The position numbers were made by a program, and so were the translations under genes. Source: an uncultured bacterium (GTDB lineage: Bacteria > Acidobacteriota > Vicinamibacteria > Vicinamibacterales > UBA2999). From it: a DNA stretch of 64,000 nucleotides. Under the pieces are notes generated by a model that worked only from the letters and a program-made list of their open reading frames with translations, ran no database searches and was not told the DNA's origin. How positions within the stretch are numbered: position 1 is the first letter of the stretch; every line of letters begins with the position of its first letter. Location: the NCBI GenBank assembly GCA_963923455.1, contig CAWULT010000005.1, forward strand, positions 3,003 through 67,002, read 5' to 3'. Positions 18,093 through 35,593 of the stretch are shown one piece after another.

Positions 18093-19265
18093 ATGAAGAC
18101 GAGAGGACAAGCACCCATGCGCCGTCAATTCTTCTTCGCGCTGTGCGTCGGTCAGCTATGGGCCGGGCCGGCCTGGGCCCAGGCCACCGCGGGCTCGTCG
18201 GGCCAGTCGTCGACGTCGACGACCACCTCCTCGACGTCGTCTGGCACGTCGTCGGCCACCGTAACCGCTCCGGGCGCGATGGCGGAGGCCGTGTTCACCA
18301 ACTTGAGCGGCTTCTCGGAAGACTATCGGGTCGGGGCGGGGGACCTGCTGGACATCCAGGTGGTCGGGCACAGCGACCAGAATCAATCCCTTCGCGTCGC
18401 GCTGTCGGGTGACGTCAGCTTCCCCGGCATCGGGCTCGTCTCGGTCGCGGAGAAGACCGTATTCGAGCTCGAAGACATGTTCTCGGATATGTTCCGGCAG
18501 AAGGGCCTGCTGAACGACGCGCAGGTCCTGGTGTCGGTTGCCGAGTTCCAGGCCAAGCCGATCTACGTCTCGGGCGCCGTGGTCAACCCAGGCGAGTTCA
18601 TCATGTCGCAGGCGCTCACGGTGGCGGATGCGATTCTGCTCGCGGGCGGGCTCCGGGCCAACGCGTCCGACCATGCGATGCTGCACCGGCGCGTGTCACC
18701 CGAGGGTGATGCTCTGCCGGTTGCCGCGATCACCGAGAATCCCGAGGTCGCCAAGCCGGGCATCGAGATCGTCAAGGTCGACATCCGCCCGGCCAAGGAG
18801 GGTCGGTTTTCGGAACTCGCCATTCCTCTGAAGCGCGGGGACGCGCTGATCGTCACCACACAGCCGATGCACGCCTTCTACGTCGTCGGAGAGGTGAACG
18901 AGCCGAAGAACTACTTCATCCCGCCGGGCCGCACGATGACGGTCAGCCAGGCCATCTCCCAGGCCCAGGGGCCGAGCCCGTACGCGAAGCTGTCGGCCGG
19001 CATGTTGATCCGCCACGACGCGACGGGCAAGCGGCAGGAAATCCTGGTCAACTATGCCGCGATCCTGCAGGGCGAGCAGGCGGACATGCCGATTCAGGAG
19101 AACGACATCATCTACATCCCTAACAGCAGAGGCCGCCGGTTCACCTACGACCTCGTGGGCATGACGGACCTGATGATGATGCAGCAGTCGTTCGCAATGG
19201 GCCGCCGGATGCAGCGCGGGATACGCGAGCAGGCCTCGCAACAGCAAATGCAGCAGGGCCGCTGA
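18093..19265 (+). CDS. Outer-membrane polysaccharide export protein (OPX, Wza-like), copy 1
   Basis: Signal peptide present. An alternative ATG at 18117 gives MRRQFFFALCVGQLWAGPAWAQ, 9 nt after GAGAGGA. A Ser/Thr-rich linker follows. Motifs are YRVGAGDLLDIQV (Poly_export), SLBB-like VSGAVVNPGEF and VVGEVNEPKNY, and DIIYIPN. Confidence 0.8.
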   Translation: MKTRGQAPMRRQFFFALCVGQLWAGPAWAQATAGSSGQSSTSTTTSSTSSGTSSATVTAPGAMAEAVFTNLSGFSEDYRVGAGDLLDIQVVGHSDQNQSLRVALSGDVSFPGIGLVSVAEKTVFELEDMFSDMFRQKGLLNDAQVLVSVAEFQAKPIYVSGAVVNPGEFIMSQALTVADAILLAGGLRANASDHAMLHRRVSPEGDALPVAAITENPEVAKPGIEIVKVDIRPAKEGRFSELAIPLKRGDALIVTTQPMHAFYVVGEVNEPKNYFIPPGRTMTVSQAISQAQGPSPYAKLSAGMLIRHDATGKRQEILVNYAAILQGEQADMPIQENDIIYIPNSRGRRFTYDLVGMTDLMMMQQSFAMGRRMQRGIREQASQQQMQQGR

Positions 19266-19274
19266 GCGAGCGTC

Positions 19275-20402
19275 ATGAGTGCCACCATGAAGACACTGAA
19301 CCTGTGCATCGTACTGCTCTGCTCCGTGGCCGCTTCAGCCACGGCCCAGACGACGCCCAGCCCGGCCGCGGGCGTTACCCAGACCGCCACGTCTTCGCCG
19401 GCACCGGCCTCCGTCAGACAGGCGTCCGACTACCTGGTGGGCCCAGGCGACGTACTCGCCATCTCCGTGTCCGGCCTGCGGGAGTTCGAGCAGAGCGCCC
19501 GGGTCAGCAACTCGGGCCGGATTCGCGTGCCCTACATCGGCGTCATGTTCGTGGCCGGCATGACGACCTTCGGGATCGAGGCGGACGTCGCGCGGCTCAT
19601 CAAGGAGCACGAACTGGTGACCGAGCCGACGGTCCGGGCGCGCCTGTCGCAGCGGCGCGCTCGTCCCGTCTACGTGGTCGGCGAGGTGACGACACCGGGA
19701 CAGTACGTGATCACCGGGGACATGTACCTGGTGGACCTCGTCAGCAAGGCCGGTGGCTTCGGCGGCGGCGCCGATGACGTCGGCTATCTCTACCGTCGCG
19801 CGCGGCGGGAGCCGTCGGTGCAGGCGCGGCTGGTCGACGTCGGTCCCGGCGGACGCGCTCCCGCAGGGGCCGCCCCGAAGCCGCCCGCTCCGGTCCCGGT
19901 ACCGGAGGCCGCGGTCGCCGGCACGATGCCCGCCTCGCCCGCGCCTCTTGTCTCAGGAGAGGAGGGCGAGATCATCAAGGTCGACATCGCCGGCCTCAAG
20001 CTGGGCACCCGCCCGGAGATGAACCTCCGGCTCGAGGGCGGTGACGTACTCTTCGTGCCGCGCCGCGTGTCCCAGAACTTCTACGTGATCGGGGATGTGT
20101 CGGTGCCCGGAGCGTACGACCTGCCGCGCGACGTCGAGCTGACCGCGGCGCAGGCCATCGTCTACGCGGGCGGCACGCTCCCGCAGGCGAAGACCGGCAA
20201 GGCCTTCCTGATGCGCTACGACGCGGAGGGCCGGCGGGAGGCGATTCCCGTGGACTTCAAGGCCATCCTCGCTGGCAAACAGCAGGACATCCCGGTCAGG
20301 AAGGACGACATCATCTTCGTTCCGAACAGCGCAGCCAAGACCGTTGGGGTCGGGTTGCTGGACATGCTGCCGACACTGCTGCAGCAGTGGCTGATCTTCT
20401 GA
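19275..20402 (+). CDS. Outer-membrane polysaccharide export protein (OPX, Wza-like), copy 2
   Basis: Signal peptide MKTLNLCIVLLCSVAASATAQ. Motifs are YLVGPGDVLAISV, VVGEVTTPGQY, VIGDVSVPGAY and DIIFVPN. A Pro/Ala-rich insert lies between the domains. Confidence 0.8.
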   Translation: MSATMKTLNLCIVLLCSVAASATAQTTPSPAAGVTQTATSSPAPASVRQASDYLVGPGDVLAISVSGLREFEQSARVSNSGRIRVPYIGVMFVAGMTTFGIEADVARLIKEHELVTEPTVRARLSQRRARPVYVVGEVTTPGQYVITGDMYLVDLVSKAGGFGGGADDVGYLYRRARREPSVQARLVDVGPGGRAPAGAAPKPPAPVPVPEAAVAGTMPASPAPLVSGEEGEIIKVDIAGLKLGTRPEMNLRLEGGDVLFVPRRVSQNFYVIGDVSVPGAYDLPRDVELTAAQAIVYAGGTLPQAKTGKAFLMRYDAEGRREAIPVDFKAILAGKQQDIPVRKDDIIFVPNSAAKTVGVGLLDMLPTLLQQWLIF

Positions 20403-21179: not shown

Positions 21180-22745
21180 ATGGTTTCCGCTCTTCACGAT
21201 CTGCTCGTGCAGTCCGCAGCGCGCCTGCCCGACAAGACGTGCCTCGTGCACGGCTCGCAGTCGCTGACCTTCGCCGGCCTCGAGGGGCAGGCGCGGCGCC
21301 TGGCGCAGGTGCTGATCGACGCAGCCGTCCTGCCCGGTGACCGCGTCGCCATCCACCTGGACAAGTCGATCCCGGAGGTGGTGGCCATCCTCGGCACGTC
21401 GATGGCGGGCGCCGTCGGCGTCAATGTCAACGCGCTGCTCAAGGGGCGTCAGGTCCGGCACATCCTGTCGGACAGCGGGGCCAAGGTCCTGATCACGTCC
21501 TATCCACGCCTGAAGACGCTCGGGACGGAGGTGGCCGGCATCGACACCCTGCGGACGCTCGTGCTCAGCGGCAAGGGCGCCGTGCCGGAGGGAACCTTCG
21601 ACGGCCTGCGGATCGTCGACATGACCGCCGCCGATTCCCTGGCAGGCGTCGCCCCGGTGCGACGGATCGACAGCGATCTCGCGGCGATCATCTACACCTC
21701 GGGATCGACTGGATTGCCCAAGGGCGTGGTGCTGTCGCACCGCAATCTCGTCGCAGGTGCCGAGAGCGTATCGACCTACCTGGGCAATACGAGCGACGAC
21801 CGCATCCTGAGCATCCTGCCCTTCAGCTTCGACTACGGATTCAACCAGCTGACGACGGCCCTTCGGGTGGGCGCGACGATCGTGCTGAAGAATCACCTGA
21901 GTGCCGGAGACACCCTGAGGACGCTGGCGGCCGAGCGCATCACCGGGCTCGCGGGCATCCCCACGCTCTGGTCGGCGCTGCTGCAGGCAGATTGGACTGG
22001 CGCGACGCTGCCGGACCTTCGGTACATCACGAATTCTGGCGGGCGCTTCGCCGAGCAGCACGTCAGAGAGTACCGGACGCGGCTGCCGCACACGCGCATC
22101 TTCCTGATGTACGGCCTGACCGAGGCGTTCCGCTCGACCTTCCTGGATCCCGATCAAGTGGACGTGCGCCCGAGCTCGATCGGGAAGGCGATCCCGAACG
22201 CCGAGATCCTCGTGATCAACGATGAAGGCCGGCCGTGCCAGCCGCACGAGGTGGGTGAGCTGGTGCACCGCGGTGCGCACGTCTCGCAGGGCTACTGGAA
22301 CGCGCCGGAACTGACCCGCGAGCGCTTCCGGCGCAATCCCCTGCAGCCGCCAAACGTACCCCACGACGAATGGGCCGTCTTCTCCGGCGACCTCGTGACG
22401 GCCGACGAGGAGGGGTATCTGTACTTCGTCGGGCGCAAGGACCACATGATCAAGACCTCGGGCTTCCGGGTGAGCCCGACGGAGGTCGAGGAGTATTTCT
22501 ACAACACCGGCCTCGTCCAGGACGCGGTCGCGTTCGGCGCCGATGACCCGGTGCTCGGCGAGCGCATCGTCGTCACCCTGTCCCTTCGCCCGGACGTCAC
22601 GATGACCGGCGACGAACTCCTGGCGACGATCGCACGACAGATGCCCAGCTTCATGGTGCCCAAGGAGATTCGCGTGGTGCCAAGGCTGCCCAGGACGTCG
22701 AGCGGCAAGCTCGATCGGCCGGCCGTCTGCGCGGGCGCGTTCTGA
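21180..22745 (+). CDS. Free-standing ANL-family adenylating enzyme (acyl/aminoacyl-AMP ligase), copy 1
   Basis: 521 aa. Motifs are IIYTSGSTGLPKGVV, FSFDYG, SGGRF, YGLTE, FSGDLV, GRKDHMIKTSGFRV and PRTSSGKLDR. No C, T or TE domain is fused. Confidence 0.85.
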   Translation: MVSALHDLLVQSAARLPDKTCLVHGSQSLTFAGLEGQARRLAQVLIDAAVLPGDRVAIHLDKSIPEVVAILGTSMAGAVGVNVNALLKGRQVRHILSDSGAKVLITSYPRLKTLGTEVAGIDTLRTLVLSGKGAVPEGTFDGLRIVDMTAADSLAGVAPVRRIDSDLAAIIYTSGSTGLPKGVVLSHRNLVAGAESVSTYLGNTSDDRILSILPFSFDYGFNQLTTALRVGATIVLKNHLSAGDTLRTLAAERITGLAGIPTLWSALLQADWTGATLPDLRYITNSGGRFAEQHVREYRTRLPHTRIFLMYGLTEAFRSTFLDPDQVDVRPSSIGKAIPNAEILVINDEGRPCQPHEVGELVHRGAHVSQGYWNAPELTRERFRRNPLQPPNVPHDEWAVFSGDLVTADEEGYLYFVGRKDHMIKTSGFRVSPTEVEEYFYNTGLVQDAVAFGADDPVLGERIVVTLSLRPDVTMTGDELLATIARQMPSFMVPKEIRVVPRLPRTSSGKLDRPAVCAGAF

Positions 22746-22782
22746 CCCGCCGTCCACCCTTCCCAAGGAATCGAACGACATC

Positions 22783-24777
22783 ATGTGCGGGATCGCTGGA
22801 CAGGTTGGCCCGGCTGCGTGCGGGCGTGAGCCGCTGCTCACGATGATGGGCACGCTGACACACCGCGGACCCGACGAGGCTGGTCTGCTGCTGGCGCGAG
22901 GGCTCGCCTTCGGGCACCTGCGGCTCAGCATCGTCGACCTGCGGCACGGCCAGCAGCCGATGGCGACAGCAGACGGCCGGCACTGGATCGTCTTCAACGG
23001 CGAGATCTTCAACCACGTCGAGCTGCGCGTCGAACTGGAGGGCCTCGGGCACGTCTTCCGCACGCGGTGCGACACCGAGGTGATCCTGAACGCCTACCGC
23101 CAGTGGGGCCGCGACTGCCTGTCCCGCTTCAACGGGCAGTGGGCCTTCGCGCTGTGGGACCGGCAGGAAGACACGGTGTTCCTGGCCCGCGACCGCTTCG
23201 GCGTGAGGCCGCTCTTCTACAGCGTTCTCGCCGACGGCCGCACGCTGGTGTTCGCCTCGGAGATGAAGGCACTGCTGACGGATGCCCGCGTCCCGCGCGA
23301 GTGGGACACCGACGCCCTGCGGGACATCTTCGTCTCGTGGGTCACCCACGGCGAGCGGACGCCGATACGGGCCATTCGCCAGCTGCCCGCCGGCTGCTGG
23401 ATGGAGGTCACCCGCGAGGGGCACCGGGTGCAGCGCTACTGGGACGTGGACCTGTCACCGGATGCCGTGGACTGGTCCCGGCCGGAGGCGAGCTGGAGCG
23501 AGGAGCTTCGATCGACCCTGGACGAAGCCTGTCGAATCCGCCTGCGCGCGGACGTCACGGTCGGCACGTACCTCTCGGGCGGACTCGACTCGAGCATCAT
23601 CACCACGCTGTCGAAGCGGAACCACCAGCCGGACCTGATGACGTTCTCGCTGGCGTTCCGGGATGCGGGCTACGACGAGTCGGCGTTCCAGCAACTCGTC
23701 GCGGATCAGATCGGGACCGAACATCACACGGTGTCGGTCAGTCGCGAGCTCATCGCGGAGCGCTTCCGCCTGGCGATCTGGCACACCGAGACGCCCATGC
23801 ATCGAACGGCGCCCATTCCCTTGATGGAGCTCTCCGCCCTGGTGCGGAGCACCGGCCTGAAGGTGGTGCTGAGCGGGGAGGGCGCGGACGAGGTCTTCGG
23901 CGGCTACGACCAGTTCCGCGAGAACAAGATCCGCCGGTTCTGGGCGCGCGTGCCGACGTCGGCCTGGCGCAAGCGGCTGCTCGACCGGCTCGAGCCCAAC
24001 ATCGCGCGTTCGGGCCCGCGCACGCGGGCGTTCTGGTACGCCTTCTACCAGGAAGGGCTCCAGGCCACCGGTCGGCCCGCCTACTCCCACTATCCGCGGT
24101 GGCGCAACGGCGCCAGCCTGCTGCCGCTCATCTGCGCGGGTGACACACGGACGAGCGGCCCCTCGTGGATCGAGCACGTGGAGGCAACCGCGCCCGATGG
24201 CTTCGCCTCCTGGGACCCGCTGTCGCAGGCGCAGTACTGGGAGATCCGGCAGTTCCTCGCCGGGTACCTGTTGTCGTCGCAGGGCGACCGGGTCGCGATG
24301 GCGAACTCCGTCGAAGGGCGCTACCCGTTCCTGGACGCCAACGTGTTCGCGCTGTCGCGCCGGATTCCGCCGCGCCTGAAGATGCGCGTGCTGCAGGAGA
24401 AGTACCTCCTGAAGCGCACGTTCCAGTCCGACCTGCCGCCGGCGATCGTGGAGCGCAAGAAGTACCCGTATCGCGCGCCTGACGCGCTCGCCCTGTATCG
24501 CGGCGCGCTGCGCCGGCAGCTGCTCGACAGCCTGAACCCGGAGGCCGTGCAGCGCCGCGGCCTGTTCCATCCCGAGGGCATCCGGAAGCTGCTCGAGCGG
24601 GTGGACCGGACGGAGGACCCGTCCGCCAGGGACAACATGGCGCTCGTGCTGGTGTACTCGGCCCACACCTTCCACGAGCAGTTCATCGAAGGCAGGATGG
24701 AGACGTCCGCGCTGCCTCCGCTCAACACAGACGTCGATTTGACACACATCACGAACCAGGTGGAACGCGCCTCATGA
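22783..24777 (+). CDS. asnB: Asparagine synthase (glutamine-hydrolysing) family amidotransferase
   Basis: 664 aa. It has the MCGIAG N-terminal Cys nucleophile, HRGPDE, NGEIFN and a YLSGGLDSS PP-loop. The RBS AAGGAA lies upstream. Confidence 0.9.
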   Translation: MCGIAGQVGPAACGREPLLTMMGTLTHRGPDEAGLLLARGLAFGHLRLSIVDLRHGQQPMATADGRHWIVFNGEIFNHVELRVELEGLGHVFRTRCDTEVILNAYRQWGRDCLSRFNGQWAFALWDRQEDTVFLARDRFGVRPLFYSVLADGRTLVFASEMKALLTDARVPREWDTDALRDIFVSWVTHGERTPIRAIRQLPAGCWMEVTREGHRVQRYWDVDLSPDAVDWSRPEASWSEELRSTLDEACRIRLRADVTVGTYLSGGLDSSIITTLSKRNHQPDLMTFSLAFRDAGYDESAFQQLVADQIGTEHHTVSVSRELIAERFRLAIWHTETPMHRTAPIPLMELSALVRSTGLKVVLSGEGADEVFGGYDQFRENKIRRFWARVPTSAWRKRLLDRLEPNIARSGPRTRAFWYAFYQEGLQATGRPAYSHYPRWRNGASLLPLICAGDTRTSGPSWIEHVEATAPDGFASWDPLSQAQYWEIRQFLAGYLLSSQGDRVAMANSVEGRYPFLDANVFALSRRIPPRLKMRVLQEKYLLKRTFQSDLPPAIVERKKYPYRAPDALALYRGALRRQLLDSLNPEAVQRRGLFHPEGIRKLLERVDRTEDPSARDNMALVLVYSAHTFHEQFIEGRMETSALPPLNTDVDLTHITNQVERAS

Positions 24778-25037
24778 GCAACGTCGACACGAACGACCTG
24801 ATGAACCAGATCCGGGACCACATCTGCGGCACGATGCTGATCGGCCTGTCCGATCAGTCGATCGAGCCCGACGAGTCCCTCGTCCAGCGCGGTGTCGTGG
24901 ACAGCACCGGAGTACTGGAGCTGGTGGAGTTCCTGCAGCAGCGATTCGGCATCACGGTAATGGATGACGAAATCACGACCGATAACCTGGACACGCTGAA
25001 TTCCATCACGGCGTTCGTGCAGCGAAAGCTCGGATAG
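24774..25037 (+). CDS. Acyl/peptidyl carrier protein 1
   Basis: 87 aa. The start overlaps the asnB stop (ATGA). GVVDSTGVLELVEFLQQRFG contains the DS(T/L) phosphopantetheine attachment motif. Confidence 0.8.
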   Translation: MSNVDTNDLMNQIRDHICGTMLIGLSDQSIEPDESLVQRGVVDSTGVLELVEFLQQRFGITVMDDEITTDNLDTLNSITAFVQRKLG

Positions 25038-25083
25038 ACCGCTTCGAGGCCTGGATTCGGGCCTGGGCAAAGGACAAGCATCG

Positions 25084-25338
25084 ATGGACTACAAGACTCC
25101 CCTCATCGAATTCATCAAGCAGGACATCCTGCACGGCCGCAACGTGCCGCTGGACGACGAGCAGGATCTGCTCAGCGCGGGTGTCCTGGATTCCCTGGGC
25201 ATCCTCCGCGTCGTGGCCTTCCTCGAGGAGCGGTTCGGCGTGCGCGTGCCGGACGAGGACGTCGTGTTCGAGAATTTCCAGAGCATCCGGGCGATGACCG
25301 ACTACGTGACGCAACAGAAGGCCGTCGGCAAGGCCTAG
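25084..25338 (+). CDS. Acyl/peptidyl carrier protein 2
   Basis: 84 aa. The motif is GVLDSLGILRVVAFLEERFG. It is paralogous to the preceding gene. Confidence 0.8.
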   Translation: MDYKTPLIEFIKQDILHGRNVPLDDEQDLLSAGVLDSLGILRVVAFLEERFGVRVPDEDVVFENFQSIRAMTDYVTQQKAVGKA

Positions 25339-25350
25339 CGTCGGCGCGCC

Positions 25351-26907
25351 ATGAGATACCTGCTGTCGCACGTCGTCGACGAGGCGGCCCGGACGCAGCC
25401 GACGCACGACGCCGTTCGGTTCTCGGGCCTGAGCCTCTCGTACGCGGAGCTCGCGCGCCGGAGCAACGGTCTGGCCCGGATCCTGGTCGACCGCGGGGTG
25501 CGCCGTGGAGACCGGGTCGGGATCTTCATGAACAAGAGCCTCGACTCGGCCGTGGCGATCCACGGCATCATGAAGGCCGGCGGCGCCTACGTGCCGCTCG
25601 ACCCCTTCGCGCCGCCGGCCCGCGTCGCCTTCGTCATTCGCGACTGCGGCATCCGCCACCTGGTCACCTCGGATCTGAAGCTCGATCAGTCGCAGCTGCT
25701 CGCCGAAGGGCTCGACCGGATGACCCTGGTCGGGGCCTCGCCGCGCGACGGGCACGACGCCGTCGGATGGGTCGAGGTGGAGGCCTCGGCGTCCGACTCG
25801 GCGCCGGCCATCGAGCTCACCGAGCAGGATCTCGCCTACATCCTCTACACGTCCGGATCCACCGGGACGCCGAAGGGGATCATGCACACGCATCGCAGCG
25901 GCCTGAGCTTCGCCGAGTGGGCCGCCGCCACCTACGGCCTGACGCCGTCGGATCGCGTCAGCAACCACGCGCCGCTGCACTTCGACCTGTCGACGTTCGA
26001 CTTCTTCGCGACGGCGGTGGCCGGGGCCACCACCGTGGTCGTGCCCGAGGCGCTCACGAAGCTCCCGGCCGACCTGGCCAGGCTGATGGCGAAGGAGCGG
26101 CTGACGGTCTGGTACTCGGTGCCGTTCGCGCTGATGCAGATGCTCGAACGGGGCAGCCTGGCGAAGCTGGATCTCTCGACGCTGCGGTGGTTGCTGTTCG
26201 CCGGCGAGGTGTTTCCCGTGAAGCACCTGCGCGAGCTGATGGCGGCGCTGCCGCACGTGCGCTTCAGCAACCTCTACGGACCCACCGAGACCAACGTCTG
26301 CACGTTCTACAACCTGCCGCCGACCCTGCCGCCCGGCGACGAGCCGATCTCCATCGGGCGCCCCTGCGAGAACGTCGAGTCGCTGATCGTCGACGAAGAC
26401 GGCCGGCCGGTTGCCGAGGGTGAGGCGGGCGAGCTGCTGATCCGGGGAGGGGTCGTGATGCGGGGCTACTGGGGACGGCCCGACCTCAACGAGAAGGGCT
26501 TCTTCCGACGGCCCGTGTTCGGCCGCCACTACGAGGACGTGTTCTACAGGACGGGAGACCTCGTCGAGCGCATGCCGGACGGCAACCTGACGTACCTGGG
26601 CCGGAAGGACCGGCAGGTCAAGACGCGCGGGTATCGGGTTGAGCTCGACGAGGTCGAGGCGGTGATCCTGTCGCTGGTCTCGATCGAAGAGGCGGCGGCA
26701 TTCGTCGTGCCGGATGGGCAGGGCAGCAACCTGATCGAGGCGGCGGTCACGGTGAAGGCCGGGTTCCAGCTGACGCCTGAGGCCGTGATGAACCATGCCT
26801 CAGCCAGGTTGCCGCACTATGCGGTGCCGGCGACGATTCGCGTGATGGAGGTCTTTCCACGGACGTCGACCGGGAAGATCGACCGTCGCGAGCTGCAGGC
26901 CCGCTAG
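25351..26907 (+). CDS. Free-standing adenylation enzyme (DltA / NRPS A-domain-like), copy 2
   Basis: 518 aa. Motifs are LAYILYTSGSTGTPKGIMHTH, HFDLSTFD (A4 with Asp), NLYGPTE, YRTGDLV, GRKDRQVKTRGYRVEL and PRTSTGKIDR. Confidence 0.85.
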   Translation: MRYLLSHVVDEAARTQPTHDAVRFSGLSLSYAELARRSNGLARILVDRGVRRGDRVGIFMNKSLDSAVAIHGIMKAGGAYVPLDPFAPPARVAFVIRDCGIRHLVTSDLKLDQSQLLAEGLDRMTLVGASPRDGHDAVGWVEVEASASDSAPAIELTEQDLAYILYTSGSTGTPKGIMHTHRSGLSFAEWAAATYGLTPSDRVSNHAPLHFDLSTFDFFATAVAGATTVVVPEALTKLPADLARLMAKERLTVWYSVPFALMQMLERGSLAKLDLSTLRWLLFAGEVFPVKHLRELMAALPHVRFSNLYGPTETNVCTFYNLPPTLPPGDEPISIGRPCENVESLIVDEDGRPVAEGEAGELLIRGGVVMRGYWGRPDLNEKGFFRRPVFGRHYEDVFYRTGDLVERMPDGNLTYLGRKDRQVKTRGYRVELDEVEAVILSLVSIEEAAAFVVPDGQGSNLIEAAVTVKAGFQLTPEAVMNHASARLPHYAVPATIRVMEVFPRTSTGKIDRRELQAR

Positions 26908-26913
26908 TTGTCG

Positions 26914-27006
26914 ATGGTCAGGCGGCTGCTGGTGCTGAACGGCCTCGCCACGATTGCAGCCACGTGGTGCTGGTGGTCGTTGGCATCGCCGTGCCGGTGT
27001 CACTGA
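26914..27006 (+). pseudogene. 30-codon remnant of an AT3 acyltransferase 5' end
   Basis: It reads ATGGTCAGGCGGCTGCTGGTGCTGAACGGC... = MVRRLLVLNGLATIA. This matches the N-termini of the intact AT3 genes at 30362 (MARRLLLLNGVAIIF) and 51521 (MVRRLLALNGIAAIF, first 17 nt identical). It then diverges and stops at 27004-27006. Confidence 0.5.
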
Positions 27007-27113
27007 TGGTGGCGGTCAGCCGGTCGCCTGCCCGCCAGACCTGCAACTACCTGTTCGGCTGACGACCCGACGAGCGAACGCGTGCTCCGTTTCGACCCGA
27101 GGAAGGACGTTCC

Positions 27114-28679
27114 GTGAACAGCAAGCTCGACTATCTCGTCATTGGCGCTGGGCCGGCAGGCCTGCAGCTCGGCTACTACCTGCAGAAGAACGCCCGCAGC
27201 TACCTGATCCTGGAACGCGGCCGGGGAGCCGGCACGTTTTTCGAGACGTACCCACGGCACCGGATGCTCATCTCGATCAACAAGGTGCACACCGGCACCG
27301 ACGACCGTGACGCGAACCTGCGGTGGGACTGGAATTCACTGCTCACCGACGGCGACGATCCGCGCTTCGGCGCCTACACGACTGAGTACTTTCCCGGCGC
27401 CGACGACCTCGTCCGGTACCTGCGAGACTTCGCCGCCCGCCACGGGCTCAGGGTGCAGTACGACACCGATGTGACGAGGGTTGCGCGCGATGCCGATGGA
27501 ACCTTCGTGGTGACCGACCGCGCCGGGCGCACCTACAGGGCCAGCCGGCTGTTCGTTGCGTCCGGGTTCACGAAGGAGAACGTGCCGACGTTCCCCGGCG
27601 CCGAGCTGTGCGAGCGCTACGGCACGCATGACACCGACGCGGCGCGCTTCACGAACAAGCGGGTGCTGATTCTCGGCAAGGGCAACTCGTCGTTCGAGAC
27701 TGCCAACCATCTCACCGGGACGGCGGCCGCGATTCACGTCTGCAGCCCCGAGTCCATCCAGATGGCGTGGCAGACCCACTACGTGGGCAACCTTCGGGCG
27801 GTGAACAACAACTTCCTCGACACGTACCAGCTCAAGTCACAGAACACCGTGATCGACGGGACGGTCACGAAGGTGGAGCGGCTGGGCGACCAGCTGGCCG
27901 CGCACATCGCCTACTCGCACGCCGCCGGCCAGACGACCGTACGGCTCTACGACGCGATCATCGCTTGCACTGGATTCAAGTTCGACCCGTCGATCTTCGA
28001 CGCGTCCTGCCAGCCCGAGCTGGTGTACGAAGGCAAGTTCCCGGCGCAGACCGCCGAGTGGGAGTCGGTGAACGTGCCTGGCCTCTACTTCGCAGGCACG
28101 CTGATGCACGCCTGTGACTTCCGCCGGACGATGTCGGGCTTCATCCATGGCTTCCGGCACAACGTGCAGGTGATGAGCCGCCTGTTCGAGATGAAGTACC
28201 ACGGGCGCGAGTGGCCGTACACGGAGTGCCCGGCGACGCCCGACGGCGTCCTCGTGGCGATCATGAATCGGCTGCGTCACGGCGCCGGCATCTACCTGCA
28301 GCCGGGCTTCCTGCGCGACGTCATCGTGGTGGACGAGGCATCCGGGCAGGCGCGGTGCTACACGGACATGCGGAACGACTACATCCCCGGGAGCTTCATC
28401 GGGACGTCCCACCACTACTACACGGTGAGCCTGGAGTACGGCCACTTCGACGGCGACCCGTTCGCGGTCGAACGGAACCCCGATCCGATGAAGGGCGGCG
28501 AGGCGTCGTACCTGCATCCGGTGATTCGACGGTACGACCGGGCGGAGCTGAAGGCCGAGTATCACATCCAGGACGATCTGGAGAACGAGTGGTGGCTCGA
28601 GGAGTATGCGCGGCCCGCGCGCGCGTGGTTCGACGCGCAGCTGAGCCGTGGCGCCGTGCCGGCTGGGGCGGCGCGCTGA
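27114..28679 (+). CDS. Two-dinucleotide-binding-domain flavoprotein (FMO / pyridine-nucleotide-disulfide-oxidoreductase-like)
   Basis: 521 aa with a GTG start after GAGGAAGGA. Motifs are DYLVIGAGPAGLQLG (FAD) and RVLILGKGNSSFE (second Rossmann). The C-terminal ~150 aa are unassigned. Confidence 0.65.
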   Translation: MNSKLDYLVIGAGPAGLQLGYYLQKNARSYLILERGRGAGTFFETYPRHRMLISINKVHTGTDDRDANLRWDWNSLLTDGDDPRFGAYTTEYFPGADDLVRYLRDFAARHGLRVQYDTDVTRVARDADGTFVVTDRAGRTYRASRLFVASGFTKENVPTFPGAELCERYGTHDTDAARFTNKRVLILGKGNSSFETANHLTGTAAAIHVCSPESIQMAWQTHYVGNLRAVNNNFLDTYQLKSQNTVIDGTVTKVERLGDQLAAHIAYSHAAGQTTVRLYDAIIACTGFKFDPSIFDASCQPELVYEGKFPAQTAEWESVNVPGLYFAGTLMHACDFRRTMSGFIHGFRHNVQVMSRLFEMKYHGREWPYTECPATPDGVLVAIMNRLRHGAGIYLQPGFLRDVIVVDEASGQARCYTDMRNDYIPGSFIGTSHHYYTVSLEYGHFDGDPFAVERNPDPMKGGEASYLHPVIRRYDRAELKAEYHIQDDLENEWWLEEYARPARAWFDAQLSRGAVPAGAAR

Positions 28680-28814
28680 CGACGAGAGTCGAGTGAGGTG
28701 GAACCCATCCGAGCCGGGCGGGTACCGGGGCGGTCACACGAGAGGCCAGGGGATCGGACACCGAACCCGCCGGGGCCTGAGGGGCAAGGCAGACCTTGCT
28801 GGGGAGAGCGCGCA

Positions 28815-30359
28815 GTGACGACGACAATCCCTGAGACGAGTCGGATTCTGGTGATCGGTGGTGGCCCCGCGGGCGCCAGCGCGGCCACGTTGCTGGCGCG
28901 GCAGGGGTACGAGGTGACCGTTTTGGAACGGGACTACTTCCCGCGGTATCACATCGGCGAGTCGCTCCTGCCGTCGGTCCTCGAGATCCTCGATCTGATG
29001 GGGCTGCGCGAGCAGATGGAGAACTCGGGCTTCGTCAAGAAGCACGGTGCCTTCCTCGAGTGGGGGTCGGAGCGCTGGGGGCTGAACTTCGGCGAACTGG
29101 GAGAAGGGCGCACGCACGCCTTCCAGGTGGAGCGGGCAGACTTCGACAAGATGCTGCTCGATCATGCGGCACGCTGTGGCGTCCAGGTGTTCGAAGGCGT
29201 GGAGGTGCAGTCGCTCGAGTGCGACGGTGACCGCCCGCGCGCGGCGAACTGGGCGATGAAGGCGCAGGCCGAGGGGCAGGTCAACGGCCGGGCGCGCGAC
29301 ATCGCGGCGAGCGGCCGCATCGCGTTCGACTACCTGATCGACGCGTCCGGGCGTGCTGGCGTGATGGCGACGAAGTACCTGCAGAACCGCAAGTACCACA
29401 AGATCTTCCAGAACGTCGCCGTGTGGGGTTACTGGAAGGGCACCGATCGGATGGTGACGGGGCGCGAGGGCGACATCGCCGTGGGCTCGGTCGAGAACGG
29501 CTGGATCTGGGCCATTCCGCTGCGGGACGACACGACGAGCGTGGGCCTGGTCATGCACCGCGACACCGTGGTCAAGCGCGGCGCCGCGTCGCTCGAGCAG
29601 CTCTACTTCGACGCCCTCGACGAGTCGCCCATCATCAAGCGCGCCATCGCGCCCGGAAGGCTCGAATCGAAGCTCCACACCGAGCAGGACTACTCCTACG
29701 CGTCACAGGTGTTCAGCGGTCCCGGCTTCTTCATGGCCGGTGACGCGGCGGCCTTCCTCGATCCACTGCTCTCGAGCGGTGTCCACCTGGCAACCTACAG
29801 CGGGCTGCTGGCAGCCGCGTCCATCGGCAGCACGATCCGGGGCGAGGTCGACGAGGCCGAGGCCGCGCAGTTCTTCGAGAAATGCTACCGCCAGGCGTAC
29901 CTGCGCTTCCTGGTGTTCCTGTCGGCCTTCTACGACGTCGGCCGCAAGAAGGAGTCGTACTTCTGGGAAGCGCAGCGCCTGACCGAGGACGACGCCGAGA
30001 CCAAGGACCTCAACGGTGCCTTCCTGAAGCTGGTGACGGGCGTGAAGGACATGGCCGACGCCAAGACCAACGCGCACCGGCTGGTGCTCGACACGATGAC
30101 CAAGCGCATCGACGAGAACCTGAAGTTCCGCAAGGACAAGATGAAGCTCGCCTCGCTCGAGGGCGAGGAAAAGGACAAGGCGAGGGCCAACGCGCGCTTC
30201 TTCAGCTCGGTCGAAGGGCTGTTCGCGCTGAGTGCCGAGGAGGCCATCGAGGGCATCTACGTCGTCACCAGGCCGGTGCTCGGTCTGGCACGGGTCGACC
30301 AGCGCGCGGTCGCAGACGAGGCGCTGGCGGGGGCCGGGCGGGCTGAGGCGGTGCACTGA
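28815..30359 (+). CDS. Flavin-dependent halogenase (CndH/PltA-like, non-tryptophan type)
   Basis: GTG 28815 is preceded by GGGGAGAG. Motifs are ILVIGGGPAG (28857-28874), FPRYHIGESLLP (28938-28973), GWIWAIP = WxWxIP (29499-29519) and FLDPLLSSG = FxxPxxSxG (29754-29780). Confidence 0.8.
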   Translation: MTTTIPETSRILVIGGGPAGASAATLLARQGYEVTVLERDYFPRYHIGESLLPSVLEILDLMGLREQMENSGFVKKHGAFLEWGSERWGLNFGELGEGRTHAFQVERADFDKMLLDHAARCGVQVFEGVEVQSLECDGDRPRAANWAMKAQAEGQVNGRARDIAASGRIAFDYLIDASGRAGVMATKYLQNRKYHKIFQNVAVWGYWKGTDRMVTGREGDIAVGSVENGWIWAIPLRDDTTSVGLVMHRDTVVKRGAASLEQLYFDALDESPIIKRAIAPGRLESKLHTEQDYSYASQVFSGPGFFMAGDAAAFLDPLLSSGVHLATYSGLLAAASIGSTIRGEVDEAEAAQFFEKCYRQAYLRFLVFLSAFYDVGRKKESYFWEAQRLTEDDAETKDLNGAFLKLVTGVKDMADAKTNAHRLVLDTMTKRIDENLKFRKDKMKLASLEGEEKDKARANARFFSSVEGLFALSAEEAIEGIYVVTRPVLGLARVDQRAVADEALAGAGRAEAVH

Positions 30360-30361
30360 CG

Positions 30362-31468
30362 ATGGCCAGGCGGCTGCTGCTGCTGAACGGGGTCGCGATC
30401 ATCTTCGTGATCCTGTTCCACACGACGGGCTACGGCTTCACCGCGCTGTTCTTCTGGGCGCACCGCTACCGTCCCGTCGCCGCGCCGAACTTCGACGCGG
30501 CCGGCACCGCCCCCTATTGGGCTCTCCGGCTGATGGAGGAGCTGGTCTGCGTGGCCATTCCGATCTTCCTGTTCGTCTCCGGCTACTTCGTGTCGGTGAT
30601 GGCCGGGCGGACGCGCGTGGTCGGCGCGGGCACGATGCGCACGCGGATCGCGGCGCTGATACCGCCGTACCTCCTCTGGTCCGGCATCGTGCTGCTGGGC
30701 CTGGCCCTCGAGGGGCGGGTGTATCCACTCAGGCGATACGCGGTGATGCTGGCGACCGGCTCGACTAACCCGAACTACTACTACGTCCCCCTGCTGGTCC
30801 AGCTCTACCTCGTGGCGCCCGTCGTCGTCCGGCTGCTGGCGTGGAACTGGCGGGTGACGCTGGCCGTGACGGGACTCATGCAGGCCTGCGTCTACGGCCT
30901 GCAGTATGCAATCGTGCTGGCGCCACAGAGCCCCACGGTCCTGCTGGCCGCCACCCTGGCGCAGAAGTGGGTCTTCCTCGTGCACCTCTTCTGGTTCACG
31001 TTCGGAGCCTTCGTCGGGCTGGAGGCCCAGCGATTCCGGACGCTGGTCGACCGCGCCCGGCCATTCCTCGTGCCGGCCACGGTCGTCTTCTTCGCGCTGG
31101 GCGTGATCGAGTGGGAGATGCTCCTCGCCTGGTCCGGGCAGCCCTGGACCGAGAACCGGACGACGCTGGTCGACGGCGCCTACTCGGCGTCGTTCCTGAT
31201 GTCGTTCCTGGCGTACGCCGAGATCCCGGCGCCGTGGTCGTCCTGGCTGACGACGCTCGGCAGCCGGTCCTTCGGGATCTACCTGGTACACGGGCTCGTG
31301 ATGGAGTACTTCTCGCGCGGGCTGTATCACCTCGCGCCATGGGCGCTCGGCCGGCAGGCCCTCTTCCTGCCCGCATTGATCGCGGTCGGCATGGCCGTAC
31401 CGCTGATGCTGATGGACGTCGTGAACCGCTCGCCGGCGCGGCGTGCCTATGCGTACGTGTTCGGCTAG
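30362..31468 (+). CDS. Acyltransferase family 3 (AT3, OafA/WecH-like) polytopic membrane O-acyltransferase
   Basis: 368 aa, about 10 TM helices. It begins MARRLLLLNGVAIIFVILFH (conserved His in TM1) and starts 3 nt after the halogenase stop. Confidence 0.8.
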   Translation: MARRLLLLNGVAIIFVILFHTTGYGFTALFFWAHRYRPVAAPNFDAAGTAPYWALRLMEELVCVAIPIFLFVSGYFVSVMAGRTRVVGAGTMRTRIAALIPPYLLWSGIVLLGLALEGRVYPLRRYAVMLATGSTNPNYYYVPLLVQLYLVAPVVVRLLAWNWRVTLAVTGLMQACVYGLQYAIVLAPQSPTVLLAATLAQKWVFLVHLFWFTFGAFVGLEAQRFRTLVDRARPFLVPATVVFFALGVIEWEMLLAWSGQPWTENRTTLVDGAYSASFLMSFLAYAEIPAPWSSWLTTLGSRSFGIYLVHGLVMEYFSRGLYHLAPWALGRQALFLPALIAVGMAVPLMLMDVVNRSPARRAYAYVFG

Positions 31469-31525: not shown

Positions 31526-32545
31526 ATGAGCAGGATTCTTGTCACGGGCGGAGCGGGCTTCATCGGGTCGCACGTCGCCGAGGCACTGGTGGCGCGCGGG
31601 CACGACGTGCTCGTGCTGGACGATCTCAGCGGGGGCTTCGAGGAGAACGTGGTCCCCGGCGCACGGTTCGTCGAGGGCAGCATCAACGACGTCGCGCTGG
31701 TCGACCGGCTGTTCGCGCAGCACCGCTTCGAGTACGTGTTCCACCTCGCGGCCTACGCCGCCGAGGGGCTGAGCCACTTCATCAAGCGGTTCAACTACAC
31801 GAACAACCTGATCGGAAGCGTCAACCTGATCAACGCCTCGATCAACACTGGCGTCAGGTGCTTCGTGTTCACGTCGTCAATCGCGGTGTACGGCACCAGC
31901 CCCGAGCTGCCGATGACGGAGGAGACGCCGGCGCGCCCGGAAGATCCCTACGGCATCGCGAAGTATGCCGTCGAGCAGGAGCTGCACGCCTGCAAGGCGA
32001 TGTTCGGCCTCGACTCGATCGTCTTCCGGCCGCACAACGTCTACGGCGAGCGACAGAACATCGGCGACAAGTACCGCAACGTGGTCGGCATCTTCATGAA
32101 CCAGTTGCTGCAGGGCAAGCCGATGAGCGTCTTCGGCGATGGCTCACAGACGCGCGCGTTCAGCTACATCGGCGAGGTGGCACCGATCATCGCCGAGTCG
32201 ATCGACGTGCCAGCCGCCTACAACCAGACGTTCAACATCGGCGCCGATGAACCGTACGCCGTGAAGGACCTGGCCCTGGCCGTCGCCAGGGCGATGGGCG
32301 TGGCGCCGAACATCGCGCACCTGCCGGCCAGGAACGAGGTGCTCGACGCCTACTCGTCGCACGAGAAGGTGTCGCGGGTGTTCGGTCAGCACCGGAAGTA
32401 CTCACTCGACGAGGGCCTGGCGCGCATGGCCGCGTGGGTGAAGCAGCACGGCGCCCGCGCCAGCAGCGAATTCGGCGACATCGAGGTGATGAAGAACTTT
32501 CCCGCGGCCTGGGCGCCATCGGCGACGCCGGCGGCGCGAGGCTGA
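31526..32545 (+). CDS. NAD-dependent sugar-nucleotide epimerase/dehydratase (extended SDR)
   Basis: Motifs are ILVTGGAGFIGSHV and the catalytic PYGIAKYAVE (YxxxK). The RBS GGAGAGG lies upstream. Confidence 0.85.
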   Translation: MSRILVTGGAGFIGSHVAEALVARGHDVLVLDDLSGGFEENVVPGARFVEGSINDVALVDRLFAQHRFEYVFHLAAYAAEGLSHFIKRFNYTNNLIGSVNLINASINTGVRCFVFTSSIAVYGTSPELPMTEETPARPEDPYGIAKYAVEQELHACKAMFGLDSIVFRPHNVYGERQNIGDKYRNVVGIFMNQLLQGKPMSVFGDGSQTRAFSYIGEVAPIIAESIDVPAAYNQTFNIGADEPYAVKDLALAVARAMGVAPNIAHLPARNEVLDAYSSHEKVSRVFGQHRKYSLDEGLARMAAWVKQHGARASSEFGDIEVMKNFPAAWAPSATPAARG

Positions 32546-32562: not shown

Positions 32563-33468
32563 GTGGCCCAGCCCTTCGTCATCTCGGTCATCCTGAACAC
32601 GAACCGGCGCGACGACACGCTCGAGTGTCTCGCGTCGCTGGTGGCGTCCGACTATGGCCACCACAAGGCGATCGTCCTCGACAACGCCTCGACCGACGGT
32701 TCGGTCGAGGCGATCCGGTCACGGTTCCCGCAGGTCGAGATCGTCCGGTTGACCGATAACCTCGGGTATGCCGGCAACAACAACGTGGGCATCGCGCACG
32801 CGATGGCGCAGGGCGCCGACTGGGTGTTCGTGCTCAACGAGGACACGGTGCTGGCGCCGGACTGCCTGCGCAGGCTCGTCGAGACGGGTGAGGGGGATCC
32901 GCGGATCGGCGTGGTCGGGCCGATGGTGTACCACCACGACGAGCCCGACGTCATCCAGTCCGCTGGCGGCGCCCTGAGCCGCTACTGGAACTCGGTGCAC
33001 ATCGGCCAGAACGTCCGTGACGCCGGGCAGTACGTCCAGCCCCACGACGTCGACTGGATTTCCGGGTGCGCCATCATGGTCCGGCGCGGCGTGATCGACG
33101 CCGTCGGCGTGATCGACGTCCGCTACTTCTACTTCTGGGAGGAAACGGAGTGGTGCATTCGCGCCGGCCGGGCCGGCTGGCGGATCGTCCAGGTGCCGGC
33201 CGCCAGGCTGTGGCACAAGGGCGTGCAGCGCGACTACCGGCCGAAGCCGACCGTGACGTACTACGCCACGCGGAACCGGCTGCTGACGCTGGCGAAGCAC
33301 CGGGCGCCGCTGCACGTGTGGCTGGTCGTCGTGCTGCAGATCGCGCGGACCCTGACCAGTTGGACCGTGAAGCCGAGGTGGCGGGAGATGCGCGAGCACC
33401 GGGCCGCCATGCTGCGCGGCGCCACCGATTTCCTTCGGGCCAGGTGGGGTGGCCCCGTCCGGCTGTGA
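32563..33468 (+). CDS. GT2 glycosyltransferase
   Basis: Probable GTG start at 32563, just downstream of the epimerase stop. Motifs are FVISVILNTNRRDDTLECL, IVLDNASTDGS, NLGYAGNNNVG and YFYFWEETEWCIR. Confidence 0.8.
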   Translation: MAQPFVISVILNTNRRDDTLECLASLVASDYGHHKAIVLDNASTDGSVEAIRSRFPQVEIVRLTDNLGYAGNNNVGIAHAMAQGADWVFVLNEDTVLAPDCLRRLVETGEGDPRIGVVGPMVYHHDEPDVIQSAGGALSRYWNSVHIGQNVRDAGQYVQPHDVDWISGCAIMVRRGVIDAVGVIDVRYFYFWEETEWCIRAGRAGWRIVQVPAARLWHKGVQRDYRPKPTVTYYATRNRLLTLAKHRAPLHVWLVVVLQIARTLTSWTVKPRWREMREHRAAMLRGATDFLRARWGGPVRL

Positions 33469-33493
33469 CCGGACTCGCGGCGATGCACCAGTC

Positions 33494-34348
33494 ATGACTC
33501 CACTTCCGCCCTCGGTCGTCTACACGCCGGGCTCTCAGGTCCGGTCCCCACTGTCGCTGCTCGCGGCGATCTGGCGCGACATGATCGAGTCGCACGAGCT
33601 GTCGTGGCGCCTCTTCGTCCGCGACGTCTCCGCCCAGTACCGCCAGAGCCTGCTCGGCGTCGTCTGGGCGTTCGTGCCGCCGATCGTCACGAGCCTGATC
33701 TTCGTCGTGCTGCAGTCGCGCAACGTCGTGGACTTCGGCGAGGTCGACATCCCGTATCCGGTGTACGTGCTGGTCGGGGCCCTGCTCTGGCAGATGTTCG
33801 TCGAGGCGATCAACGCGCCGCTCAAGACCGTCACGGCCGCCAGGCCGATGCTGGCGAAGATCAACTTCCCCCGGGAGGCGCTCGTCGTCTCCTCGTTCTA
33901 CATGGTGCTCTACGGGGTGGCGATGAAGCTGGTCGTGATCCTGGCGGTCCTGCTGATCTTCGGCGTGCCGTTGCACTGGACGCTGCCGGCGGCGCTCGGA
34001 CCGATCCTGATCCTCGTCTTGTGCGGCCTGTGCCTGGGGCTGCTCGTCACGCCGTTCGGCATGCTCTACGGTGACGTCGCCTCGGGCCTGCCCGTGGCGA
34101 CGCAGGTGCTCTTCTTCGTCACGCCGGTCGTCTACGTGCCGCCGCAGACGTTTCCGTTCTCGCTCATCGGCACCATCAATCCGGTGAGCCCGCCACTGGT
34201 CGCGAGCCGCGACCTGCTGACGAAAGGCGTGCTGACCAACCCCGAGGCCCTGGCCGGACTGACGGGCGTGGTCCTCGTCGGCCTGGCCGTGGCCCTCGTG
34301 ATCTACCGGGCCGCGATGCCGATTCTCATCGAACGGACGAGCGCGTGA
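33494..34348 (+). CDS. ABC-2 type polysaccharide exporter permease (Wzm/KpsM/TagG-like)
   Basis: About 285 aa with about 6 TM helices. It lies immediately upstream of, and overlaps, the ATPase gene. Confidence 0.8.
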   Translation: MTPLPPSVVYTPGSQVRSPLSLLAAIWRDMIESHELSWRLFVRDVSAQYRQSLLGVVWAFVPPIVTSLIFVVLQSRNVVDFGEVDIPYPVYVLVGALLWQMFVEAINAPLKTVTAARPMLAKINFPREALVVSSFYMVLYGVAMKLVVILAVLLIFGVPLHWTLPAALGPILILVLCGLCLGLLVTPFGMLYGDVASGLPVATQVLFFVTPVVYVPPQTFPFSLIGTINPVSPPLVASRDLLTKGVLTNPEALAGLTGVVLVGLAVALVIYRAAMPILIERTSA

Positions 34349-35592: not shown

Positions 35593-35593
35593 C

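Follow-up and report, generated by a model that had tools for sequence, protein, structure and literature searches.

Carrier-protein modules beside AT3 acyltransferases in a Vicinamibacterales surface-polysaccharide locus: a putative route to proline-derived glycan decorations

The subject of this study is a window of 64,000 nucleotides from an uncultured bacterium of the Vicinamibacterales (Acidobacteriota; assembly GCA_963923455.1, contig CAWULT010000005.1, positions 3,003 to 67,002 of the forward strand), in which a cassette of adenylase, carrier-protein (CP), flavoenzyme and acyltransferase genes sits among genes for a surface polysaccharide. We think it somewhat probable that this cassette comprises two thiotemplate loading and tailoring modules, and that both supply AT3 membrane acyltransferases of a specialised clade, within a locus (Wzy/Wzc/Wza and Wzm/Wzt) whose polysaccharide is probably sulfated. 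We put forward more tentatively, as a serious possibility rather than an expectation, that in many Chloroflexota and Acidobacteriota this AT3 clade decorates glycans with acyl groups taken from carrier proteins rather than from acyl-CoA, as an AT3 counterpart of DltB, and that these groups include a proline-derived chloro- or bromopyrrole-2-carboxylate and an amidated acid provided by a TIGR03098 trio of ligase, acyl carrier protein (ACP) and amidotransferase. All functional steps in this scheme are drawn from homology and gene neighbourhood.

Pfam and NCBIfam profile searches on about 55 open reading frames (ORFs) covering the window bore out, with their coordinates, all eight genes listed in the original prediction: two free-standing adenylases (A1 and A2), an AsnB-type amidotransferase, two carrier proteins (CP1 and CP2), a flavoprotein resembling flavin-containing monooxygenases (FMO), a flavin-dependent halogenase (FDH) and an AT3 protein (AT3a; Table 1). 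They lie on the plus strand with successive gaps of 37, -4, 46, 12, 206, 135, 2 and 57 nt. Overlooked at that stage were a dehydrogenase gene, two further AT3 genes (AT3b and AT3c) and the relic of another. The claim that the window holds no condensation (C), ketosynthase (KS) or thioesterase (TE) domain stands: none was found among the ORFs scanned, and tblastn with a protein made of C, peptidyl carrier protein (PCP) and TE domains, a type II TE and a KAS III, all from related loci, gave no match in the window at E<=1e-3. For the adenylase pocket codes we used an alignment in which the reference yields DAWTIAAICK, the textbook code of PheA. Both enzymes retain Asp235 and Lys517 in it, just as had been proposed for the core Asp and the terminal Lys. 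The adenylase and carrier-protein pairs had also been taken for duplicates. This we reject, because A1 and A2 are only about 30% identical, belong to separate families and keep different neighbours; they represent two different modules.

A2 looks less like a generic amino-acid loader than like a PltF-like proline adenylase. Its best single-domain match in the PDB is 6o6e, an L-proline--[L-prolyl-carrier protein] ligase, at 319.6 bits against 257.7 for the next such match, and five LgrA entries outrank 6o6e in the same output. The ten-residue code of A2 is DLFYLALVCK; 55 of about 80 relatives have exactly the same one. We infer specificity for proline from this homology and from the conserved pairing of the gene, for which CP2 appears to be the conserved partner. 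The third component would be the dehydrogenase that had been overlooked. Its top three PDB matches are all prolyl-CP dehydrogenases (4irn, the prolyl-ACP dehydrogenase AnaB, 453.8 bits; PigA, 340.7; 6cxt, 328.5; next 278.8), and its best NCBIfam profiles are PigA (447.9 bits) and RedW (409.3; next 301.5). It is found about 20 kb from A2 in the window, still following its usual upstream neighbours (PecL-GT1e), and has been split from A2 by a rearrangement. A proline adenylase together with a prolyl-CP dehydrogenase argues for a chemistry of pyrrole formation and halogenation, not for aminoacyl esterification in the style of Dlt.

The organization of this module in other genomes supports the grouping. 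An A2-seeded scan of one genome per GTDB species gave 488 relatives, and the best 80 loci were analysed; we call close clade those with A2 at least 58.5% identical. The best 80 are mostly from Chloroflexota (Anaerolineae, Ardenticatenaceae, Caldilineales, Promineifilaceae and the cultured Bellilinea caldifistulae) and a few are from Acidobacteriota; more distant ones come from cyanobacteria, Phycisphaerae, Gemmatimonadales and Gammaproteobacteria. With glycosyltransferases abbreviated GT and acyl-CoA dehydrogenase family members ACAD, the order in the close clade is AsnB2-GT1-GT1-GT2-FMO-(PecL-GT1)-ACAD-A2-CP2-[zero to two halogenases]-[one to three AT3]-epimerase-GT2-GT1-Wzy-GT2-GT1. In 47 of 56 close-clade loci the gene just upstream of A2 is the dehydrogenase (the two are also paired in 17 of 18 distant loci); a CP2 ortholog lies beside A2 in 52 of 53, an AT3 gene near it in 45 of 48 and a halogenase in 32 of 48, and the epimerase follows the AT3 genes in 28 of 43. 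This epimerase is the best-conserved neighbour of AT3 (70-82% identity). AT3 stays by the module even where glycosyltransferases are not close, the former being present in 35 of 38 loci and the latter in 27 of 38. We take ACAD-A2-CP2-(halogenase)-AT3 as the conserved unit. Among the distant relatives of A2, AT3 is found in only one of 14 loci, and ornithine cyclodeaminase and extra A domains are found. In eight loci (L060, L063, L069, L071, L072, L074, L076 and L077; cyanobacteria, Phycisphaeraceae and Calditrichia) the A2/ACAD pair follows an ornithine cyclodeaminase gene, often with a HupE/UreJ-type membrane protein. Since this enzyme forms proline, its position suggests a dedicated supply of proline for the module.

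Closer to the window, the full order A1-AsnB-CP-CP-A2-AT3(-halogenase-AT3) recurs in a similar exopolysaccharide (EPS) context in the Vicinamibacterales loci L082, L084, L089 and L090, which agrees with the expectation that the block would be conserved inside EPS loci. The cassette proteins of these loci are about 60-78% identical to those of the window. A1 and the halogenase have their nearest named relatives in metagenome-assembled genomes of Vicinamibacterales, whose loci are collinear with the window (49-80% protein identity overall, 63-74% for the cassette proteins). Cassettes of this kind are widely distributed in both Chloroflexota and Acidobacteriota.

The association holds when it is searched from the other side. 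We aligned the AT3 subclade and searched metagenome contigs with it, retaining 23 informative loci (at least 5 kb upstream, at least 37% identity). A carrier protein is present in 21 of the 23 and an adenylase in 20, of which 17 are of the A2 type; in L140, L148 and L162 only CP-A1-AsnB lies beside AT3 and Wzm/Wzt. The link between AT3 and carrier proteins is thus two-way and extends across two unrelated loading modules, as would be expected if acyl groups pass, in Dlt-like fashion, from a carrier protein through AT3 to the glycan. Of the Dlt-like logic first proposed, the succession of adenylase, carrier protein, AT3 and glycan is favoured by comparative genomics, and the Dlt-type chemistry is not retained. 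Gene orders also interleave the partners (AT3-CP-AT3, AT3-FDH-AT3, and AT3-ACAD-AT3b in L130). The subclade itself is narrow: phmmer returned 725 clusters among 1.84 billion representatives, nearly all of about 370 aa. His20 is invariant in 33 of its members, and the termini are characteristic. AT3b and AT3c are paralogues that group with AT3a and with the AT3 genes of the relatives. The relic downstream of A2 matches the first AT3 of L082 in tblastn (residues 1-17 at 59% and 342-367 at 65% identity, E 1.7e-8; DNA 75%), and an intact AT3 gene occupies its position in both L082 and L084. One apparent AT3 fusion, P0363, was discarded, its long match being a read-through of two tandem AT3 genes.

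The second module is made of A1, AsnB and CP1. The original prediction mentioned a trio of ligase, ACP and amidotransferase associated with exosortase loci, and such a trio does exist. With 651.6 bits against a cut-off of 592.35, A1 passes TIGR03098 ('acyl-CoA ligase, exosortase A system-associated'), and its homologs, up to 78% identical, all bear this name. AsnB starts with MCGIAG, thus keeping the Cys2 nucleophile, and its stop overlaps the start of CP1 by 4 nt; the public call of this gene (644 aa, start at 22843, 60 nt late) is probably wrong since it loses Cys2. In L082 and L084 the place between A1 and CP1 is taken by AsnB orthologs with 70-71% identity, and CP1 is presumed to be the partner of A1 and AsnB. 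The pocket code of A1, DYFATSMRSK, has Arg at position 330, which hints at an acidic substrate that AsnB might amidate; we offer this as speculation. The A1-AsnB-CP unit was found in L082, L084, L085, L090, L140, L148 and L162. It is joined to CP2-A2-AT3 in the Vicinamibacterales-type L082, L084 and L090, on its own beside AT3 in L140, L148 and L162, and accompanied by a small fatty-acid-like gene set in L085. Pairs of CP1 and A1 without A2 occur in L028, L029, L108, L111, L117 and L123. In the canonical TIGR03098 context (Massilia, L086) the neighbours are an ornithine/diaminopimelate (Orn/DAP) decarboxylase, an ACP, hydrolases and AsnB. Searching the window by tblastn with this Massilia decarboxylase revealed no TIGR03099 pyridoxal-phosphate-dependent decarboxylase.

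The halogenases of the relatives carry WxWxIP and FxDPxFSxG motifs, and their best PDB matches are Mpy16 (421.9 bits), ChlB4 (405.7) and PltA (398.7). Because these match halogenases of pyrrolyl-S-carrier proteins, they argue for an aromatic pyrrolyl-S-CP intermediate. The halogenase of the window has all four expected signatures (GGGPAG, WIWAIP, FLDPLLSSG and the Lys in GFVKKHG aligned to Lys76 of CndH), and it matches best CndH (3e1t, 262.6 bits), RadH (256.8) and CmlS (229), with Mpy16 at 155 and PltA at 141 bits. Its ortholog in L082 (71%) sits between two AT3 genes, and in the one Chloroflexota genome checked a halogenase of the window's type lies 470 kb from the A2 locus. We read the window's enzyme as a probable recent, non-orthologous replacement in the AT3-halogenase-AT3 slot held by PltA/Mpy16-like enzymes in Chloroflexota.

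The other flavoprotein fared differently from what had been claimed for it. It has two dinucleotide-binding domains, and its AlphaFold model (predicted local distance difference test, pLDDT, 86) gives as best Foldseek matches 7a7b, 3d1c and 4a9w at 18-20% identity. The modelled fold is of the YpdA, type II FMO or thioredoxin-reductase-like (TrxR-like) kind, with about 150 C-terminal residues that match nothing. A role in on-carrier tailoring, or as flavin reductase of the halogenase, was dropped: the gene is missing from L082 and L084 and present in the halogenase-free L002 and L003, hence not tied to the carrier proteins. In Chloroflexota loci it lies upstream, after GT2, and it seems to belong to the wider glycan locus instead of the carrier-protein cassette. 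In the window it appears to have arrived beside the AT3 deletion, as the unbroken AT3 gene at that place in L082 and L084 suggests.

These elements can be assembled into a tentative pathway. A2 would adenylate L-proline and load it on holo-CP2, as homology and the conserved pairing suggest. The dehydrogenase would then oxidise prolyl-S-CP2 to pyrrole-2-carboxyl-S-CP2, or alternatively stop after two electrons at pyrroline, as AnaB does. The halogenase may chlorinate or brominate the ring tethered to CP2, a step suggested by the AT3-halogenase-AT3 slot and by its PltA/Mpy16-type occupants in Chloroflexota. In parallel, and more speculatively, A1 might load an acid, possibly an acidic one or an amino acid, on CP1, where AsnB might amidate it. 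AT3a, perhaps with AT3b and AT3c, would collect the carrier-bound acyl groups on the cytoplasmic side of the membrane. The AT3 proteins would esterify hydroxyls of the glycan sugars during or after export, in parallel with the passage from DltC to DltB; the evidence for this last step is the two-way gene neighbourhood. The FMO-like flavoprotein is given no step.

Some observations weigh against this pathway and are best considered together with the alternatives that they bring up. There is no fusion of AT3 with a carrier protein in the loci or among the 150 best AT3 representatives, and a 2022 review considers the physiological donor of AT3 enzymes to be acyl-CoA rather than ACP (PMC9558356). 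AT3a shares its family with OafA/OafB, Oac, OatA, ExoH/ExoZ, OpgC, IcaC, CmmA and TmaT; it stands alone, at about 370 aa, is predicted to have many membrane helices, keeps the conserved His near the N-terminus and is encoded in a glycan locus. One might then suppose that the module makes a small diffusible or lipid-bound halopyrrole metabolite, as a natural-product cluster set within or beside the glycan locus, and that the AT3 proteins are ordinary O-acetyl- or O-succinyltransferases of the polysaccharide using acyl-CoA, as the characterised AT3 enzymes do. Modules of the PltF/PltL/PltE/PltA type are classically natural-product enzymes, and the distant relatives of A2 lie among extra A domains. 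Besides, in Promineifilaceae and Leptofilum (L010, L038-L056; e.g. L039 9761-12274, L047 6644-7411) ACAD-A2-CP-AT3 is accompanied by C-PCP-TE, a type II TE and a sulfotransferase, and by a halogenase-like gene that lacks WxWxIP and has FVDPIFSHG. Such loci resemble a small-molecule pathway in which AT3 has been retained, so the module is not exclusively glycan-directed, and partners that the original prediction would have counted against itself, absent from the window, do exist in these relatives. Yet neither the window nor its closest relatives have C, KS, TE or another off-loading enzyme. Moreover, unlike the characterised members of the family, the AT3a subclade is genomically tied to carrier proteins and adenylases: it is a narrow clade, not a generic one, that tracks the carrier-protein modules whichever of the two seeds the search, and does so for two unrelated types of module, with the carrier-protein genes interleaved among the AT3 genes. 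We hold the production of a metabolite to be an improbable account of the cassette as a whole.

A second set of points concerns the nature of the acyl group. The code of A2 gave no match in a string search of the literature. The dehydrogenase falls under the NCBIfam equivalog cut-offs (447.9 against 500 bits for PigA, 409.3 against 650 for RedW), and in Bellilinea-type loci it is not adjacent to A2. AnaB, its best structural relative (4irn, ahead of PigA by the scores above), stops at pyrroline. The halogenase of the window is excluded from the clade of pyrrolyl-S-CP halogenases (PltA/Mpy16/Bmp2), its family is otherwise solitary and in unrelated context (L088), and a homolog of iodotyrosine deiodinase is encoded in the same locus, so that it might act on another substrate, e.g. 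a phenol. These points would fit a scheme in which the Dlt-like logic is kept and the dehydrogenase carries out a two-electron oxidation only, yielding a dehydroprolyl (pyrroline-carboxyl) or prolyl ester, with the halogenase, closest to the tyrosyl-type CndH, working on a phenolic or tyrosine-like group brought by A1. The existence of cassettes without any halogenase (L084, L002 and L003) is in line with it. But a PltA/Mpy16-type halogenase is present in the cassette of two thirds of the close relatives (the 32 of 48 given above), and such enzymes, we presume, need an aromatic pyrrolyl-S-CP; the best-scoring NCBIfam profiles of the dehydrogenase are the pyrrole-forming PigA and RedW; and the pocket code of A1 bears no evident resemblance to known tyrosine codes. 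A pyrroline or prolyl ester therefore seems to us rather unlikely, somewhat more so than a metabolite.

The acceptor may also be questioned. Carrier-protein-dependent tailoring of O-antigen sugars in the cytoplasm has been proposed before. By analogy with the ACP-dependent tetronate route of Vibrio cholerae O1 perosamine, the acyl groups bound to the carrier proteins might N-acylate an amino-sugar nucleotide or a lipid-linked repeat in the cytoplasm through an enzyme other than AT3. The locus does encode a hexapeptide acyltransferase and several proteins without Pfam match. However, such candidates are not conserved beside the carrier-protein modules, whereas AT3 is, and tblastn found no counterpart of the hexapeptide gene in L002-L081, the A2-seeded loci. 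We give this possibility very little credit. Transfer to the glycan by AT3 thus remains our preferred reading.

How the proposed system relates to known ones can be stated with some precision. All four component types of the thiotemplated pyrrole pathway (PltF/PltL/PltE/PltA of pyoluteorin, PigI/PigG/PigA, RedM/RedO/RedW, Bmp1-4, Mpy15/16) are shared with the cassette, with strong sequence similarity to the solved members. The cassette differs in having no downstream KS, C or TE to receive the pyrrolyl unit and in its conserved neighbours, which are AT3, a sugar epimerase and glycosyltransferases. The window departs further, with a dehydrogenase 20 kb away and a halogenase of the CndH/CmlS clade. 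With DltABCD (D-alanylation of teichoic acids) and AlmEFG (glycine on Vibrio lipid A) it shares the logic of an adenylase, a carrier protein, a membrane acyltransferase and a surface polymer. Here, however, the membrane enzyme is AT3 (PF01757), not MBOAT as DltB or LpxL-like as AlmG, and the acyl group would reach it already oxidised, halogenated or amidated on the carrier. Membership in the Dlt family itself was rejected: A2 scores 254.2 bits on TIGR01734 against a DltA cut-off of 559.85, CP1 and CP2 score 28.5 and 25.0 bits on NF003464 against a DltC cut-off of 68, and profile scans of the window ORFs turned up neither MBOAT nor DltD. A related case is CloN1-N7/CouN1-N7, by which a proline-derived pyrrolyl-S-CP esterifies the noviose hydroxyl of clorobiocin and coumermycin. 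There the soluble KAS III-like CloN2 and alpha/beta-hydrolase CloN7 act with a second ACP on an aminocoumarin, a small molecule, as acceptor. The cassette would have in common the delivery of a pyrrolyl-S-CP to a sugar hydroxyl; it lacks such soluble enzymes and its acceptor is presumed to be a polysaccharide. Finally, the set associated with XrtA and PEP-CTERM (TIGR03098, TIGR03099 and TIGR03108) resembles the cassette in combining a TIGR03098 ligase, an ACP and an AsnB-type amidotransferase in an EPS locus. Unlike that set, the window has no TIGR03099 decarboxylase, and no exosortase or PEP-CTERM protein is encoded within it or in the 10 kb past its end. Its AsnB and a second AsnB-like protein (AsnB2) score below TIGR03108 (423.5 and 147.6 bits against 816.9), and the trio is joined to a proline/pyrrole module and AT3.

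Profile searches indicate that the flanks of the cassette form a large surface-polysaccharide locus (Table 1). The window has about 68% G+C, and nearly all genes between 558 and 58469 are on the plus strand. A scan of the region from 18 to 33 kb for promoters and terminators gave no signal above chance. Apart from the genes in the table, the locus encodes a GmhA-like SIS protein, many GT1, GT2 and PMT_2 transferases, a UDP-GlcNAc 2-epimerase and a Big_9/LamG secreted protein. Just past the end of the window lie a GHMP kinase, a nucleotidyltransferase and CysD/CysNC genes for the synthesis of 3'-phosphoadenosine-5'-phosphosulfate (PAPS; L087 1-2426). The polysaccharide is probably sulfated because sulfotransferases are encoded in the window and PAPS synthesis just beyond it. 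A sulfotransferase gene is also found upstream of the dehydrogenase in 23 Chloroflexota relatives. AsnB2 cannot hydrolyse glutamine in the usual way since it lacks the N-terminal Cys nucleophile; its orthologs (46-55% identity) head the conserved locus in many relatives. The 846-aa protein has a counterpart with 64% identity at the same place, ahead of the Wza genes, in Vicinamibacterales relatives, and the ORF at 58611-59390 looks spurious. The presence of a B12-binding radical SAM enzyme and of a FliB-related protein in a glycan locus makes further unusual tailoring possible. The deiodinase homolog belongs to a family of flavin-dependent reductive dehalogenases and, judged by eye, keeps the Glu/Tyr/Lys residues that bind halotyrosine. 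It is odd to find a dehalogenase homolog sharing a locus with a halogenase. No ortholog of it was seen in the flanks of the A2-seeded relatives.

Table 1. Features of the window, in order of position (strand and scores as obtained)
Feature	Position	Strand	Evidence
Wzc-like kinase	558-2720		profile match
Hexapeptide acyltransferase	2725-3462		profile match
B12-binding radical SAM enzyme	4776-6506	+	HpnJ-like best, 207 bits, below cut-off
Wzy	6531-7994		profile match
Bac_transf priming transferase	12867-14354		profile match
846-aa protein	15542-18082	+	weak DUF5060 only
Two Wza	18093-20402		profile match
A1, free-standing ANL adenylase, TIGR03098 family	21180-22745	+	AMP-binding 277 bits, and AMP-binding_C
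AsnB-type glutamine amidotransferase	22783-24777	+	GATase_7 and Asn_synthase 294 bits; TIGR01536 474 against 267
CP1, 87-aa carrier protein	24774-25037	+	PP-binding 26.9 bits; VDSTG
CP2, 84-aa type II peptidyl carrier protein	25084-25338	+	PP-binding 36.9 bits; LDSLG
A2, free-standing, PltF-like, putative L-proline adenylase	25351-26907	+	AMP-binding 308 bits; TIGR01733 (amino-acid adenylation domain) 408 against cut-off 317
AT3 relic	26914-27059	+	N-terminal 17 and C-terminal 26 codons left; about 1 kb of interior deleted
FMO-like flavoprotein, two dinucleotide-binding domains	27114-28679	+	Pyr_redox_3 163 bits; FMO-like only 26
Flavin-dependent halogenase, CndH/RadH/CmlS clade	28698/28815-30359	+	Trp_halogenase 139 bits
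AT3a, AT3-only membrane acyltransferase	30362-31468	+	Acyl_transf_3 (PF01757) 95.9 bits against cut-off 31
NAD-dependent GalE-like sugar epimerase/dehydratase	31526-32545	+	Epimerase 180 bits
Wzm/Wzt	33449-35592		profile match
Sulfotransferase	35540-36802	+	profile match
Second sulfotransferase-like ORF	39587-40324	+	PAPS-loop-like motif, judged by eye only
AsnB2, second AsnB-like protein	~40372-42204	+	no N-terminal Cys nucleophile, begins VGFVKP
Putative prolyl-carrier-protein dehydrogenase, ACAD family (AnaB/PigA/RedW/PltE-like)	46803-47948	+	PDB and NCBIfam matches
AT3b	50423-51508	+	Acyl_transf_3 115 bits
AT3c	51521-52633	+	Acyl_transf_3 79 bits
Iodotyrosine deiodinase homolog	54090-54749	+	261.7 bits to Haliscomenobacter 5ko7; mouse/human IYD 186-194
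CxxCxxCC protein, relative of FliB (flagellin lysine-N-methylase)	57279-58469	+	53.6 bits, below cut-off
885-aa protein	59500-62157	-	weak DUF5060 only; paralogue of the 846-aa protein

We found no description of this cassette, or of a halopyrrole decoration of glycans, in the literature; searches for pyrrole carboxylate on a polysaccharide or O-antigen, and for halogenases together with Anaerolineae, gave no relevant account. If the proposed route is correct, carrier-protein-dependent tailoring of surface polymers, so far the province of Dlt and AlmEFG, would extend to the AT3 family. Glycans would acquire a new class of substituent, a proline-derived and often halogenated pyrrole carboxylate, and this would be the first halogenated-pyrrole modification of a glycan. 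The locus is widespread in lineages that abound in the environment but have received little study: Anaerolineae and other Chloroflexota in sludge and sediments, and Vicinamibacterales in soils. Polymer-bound organohalogen would represent a large and overlooked sink for biological halogenation. The cultured carrier Bellilinea caldifistulae GOMI-1 opens the prediction to direct chemical testing. The long unexplained trio of TIGR03098 ligase, ACP and amidotransferase would, for its part, gain a first functional handle and a role that can be tested.

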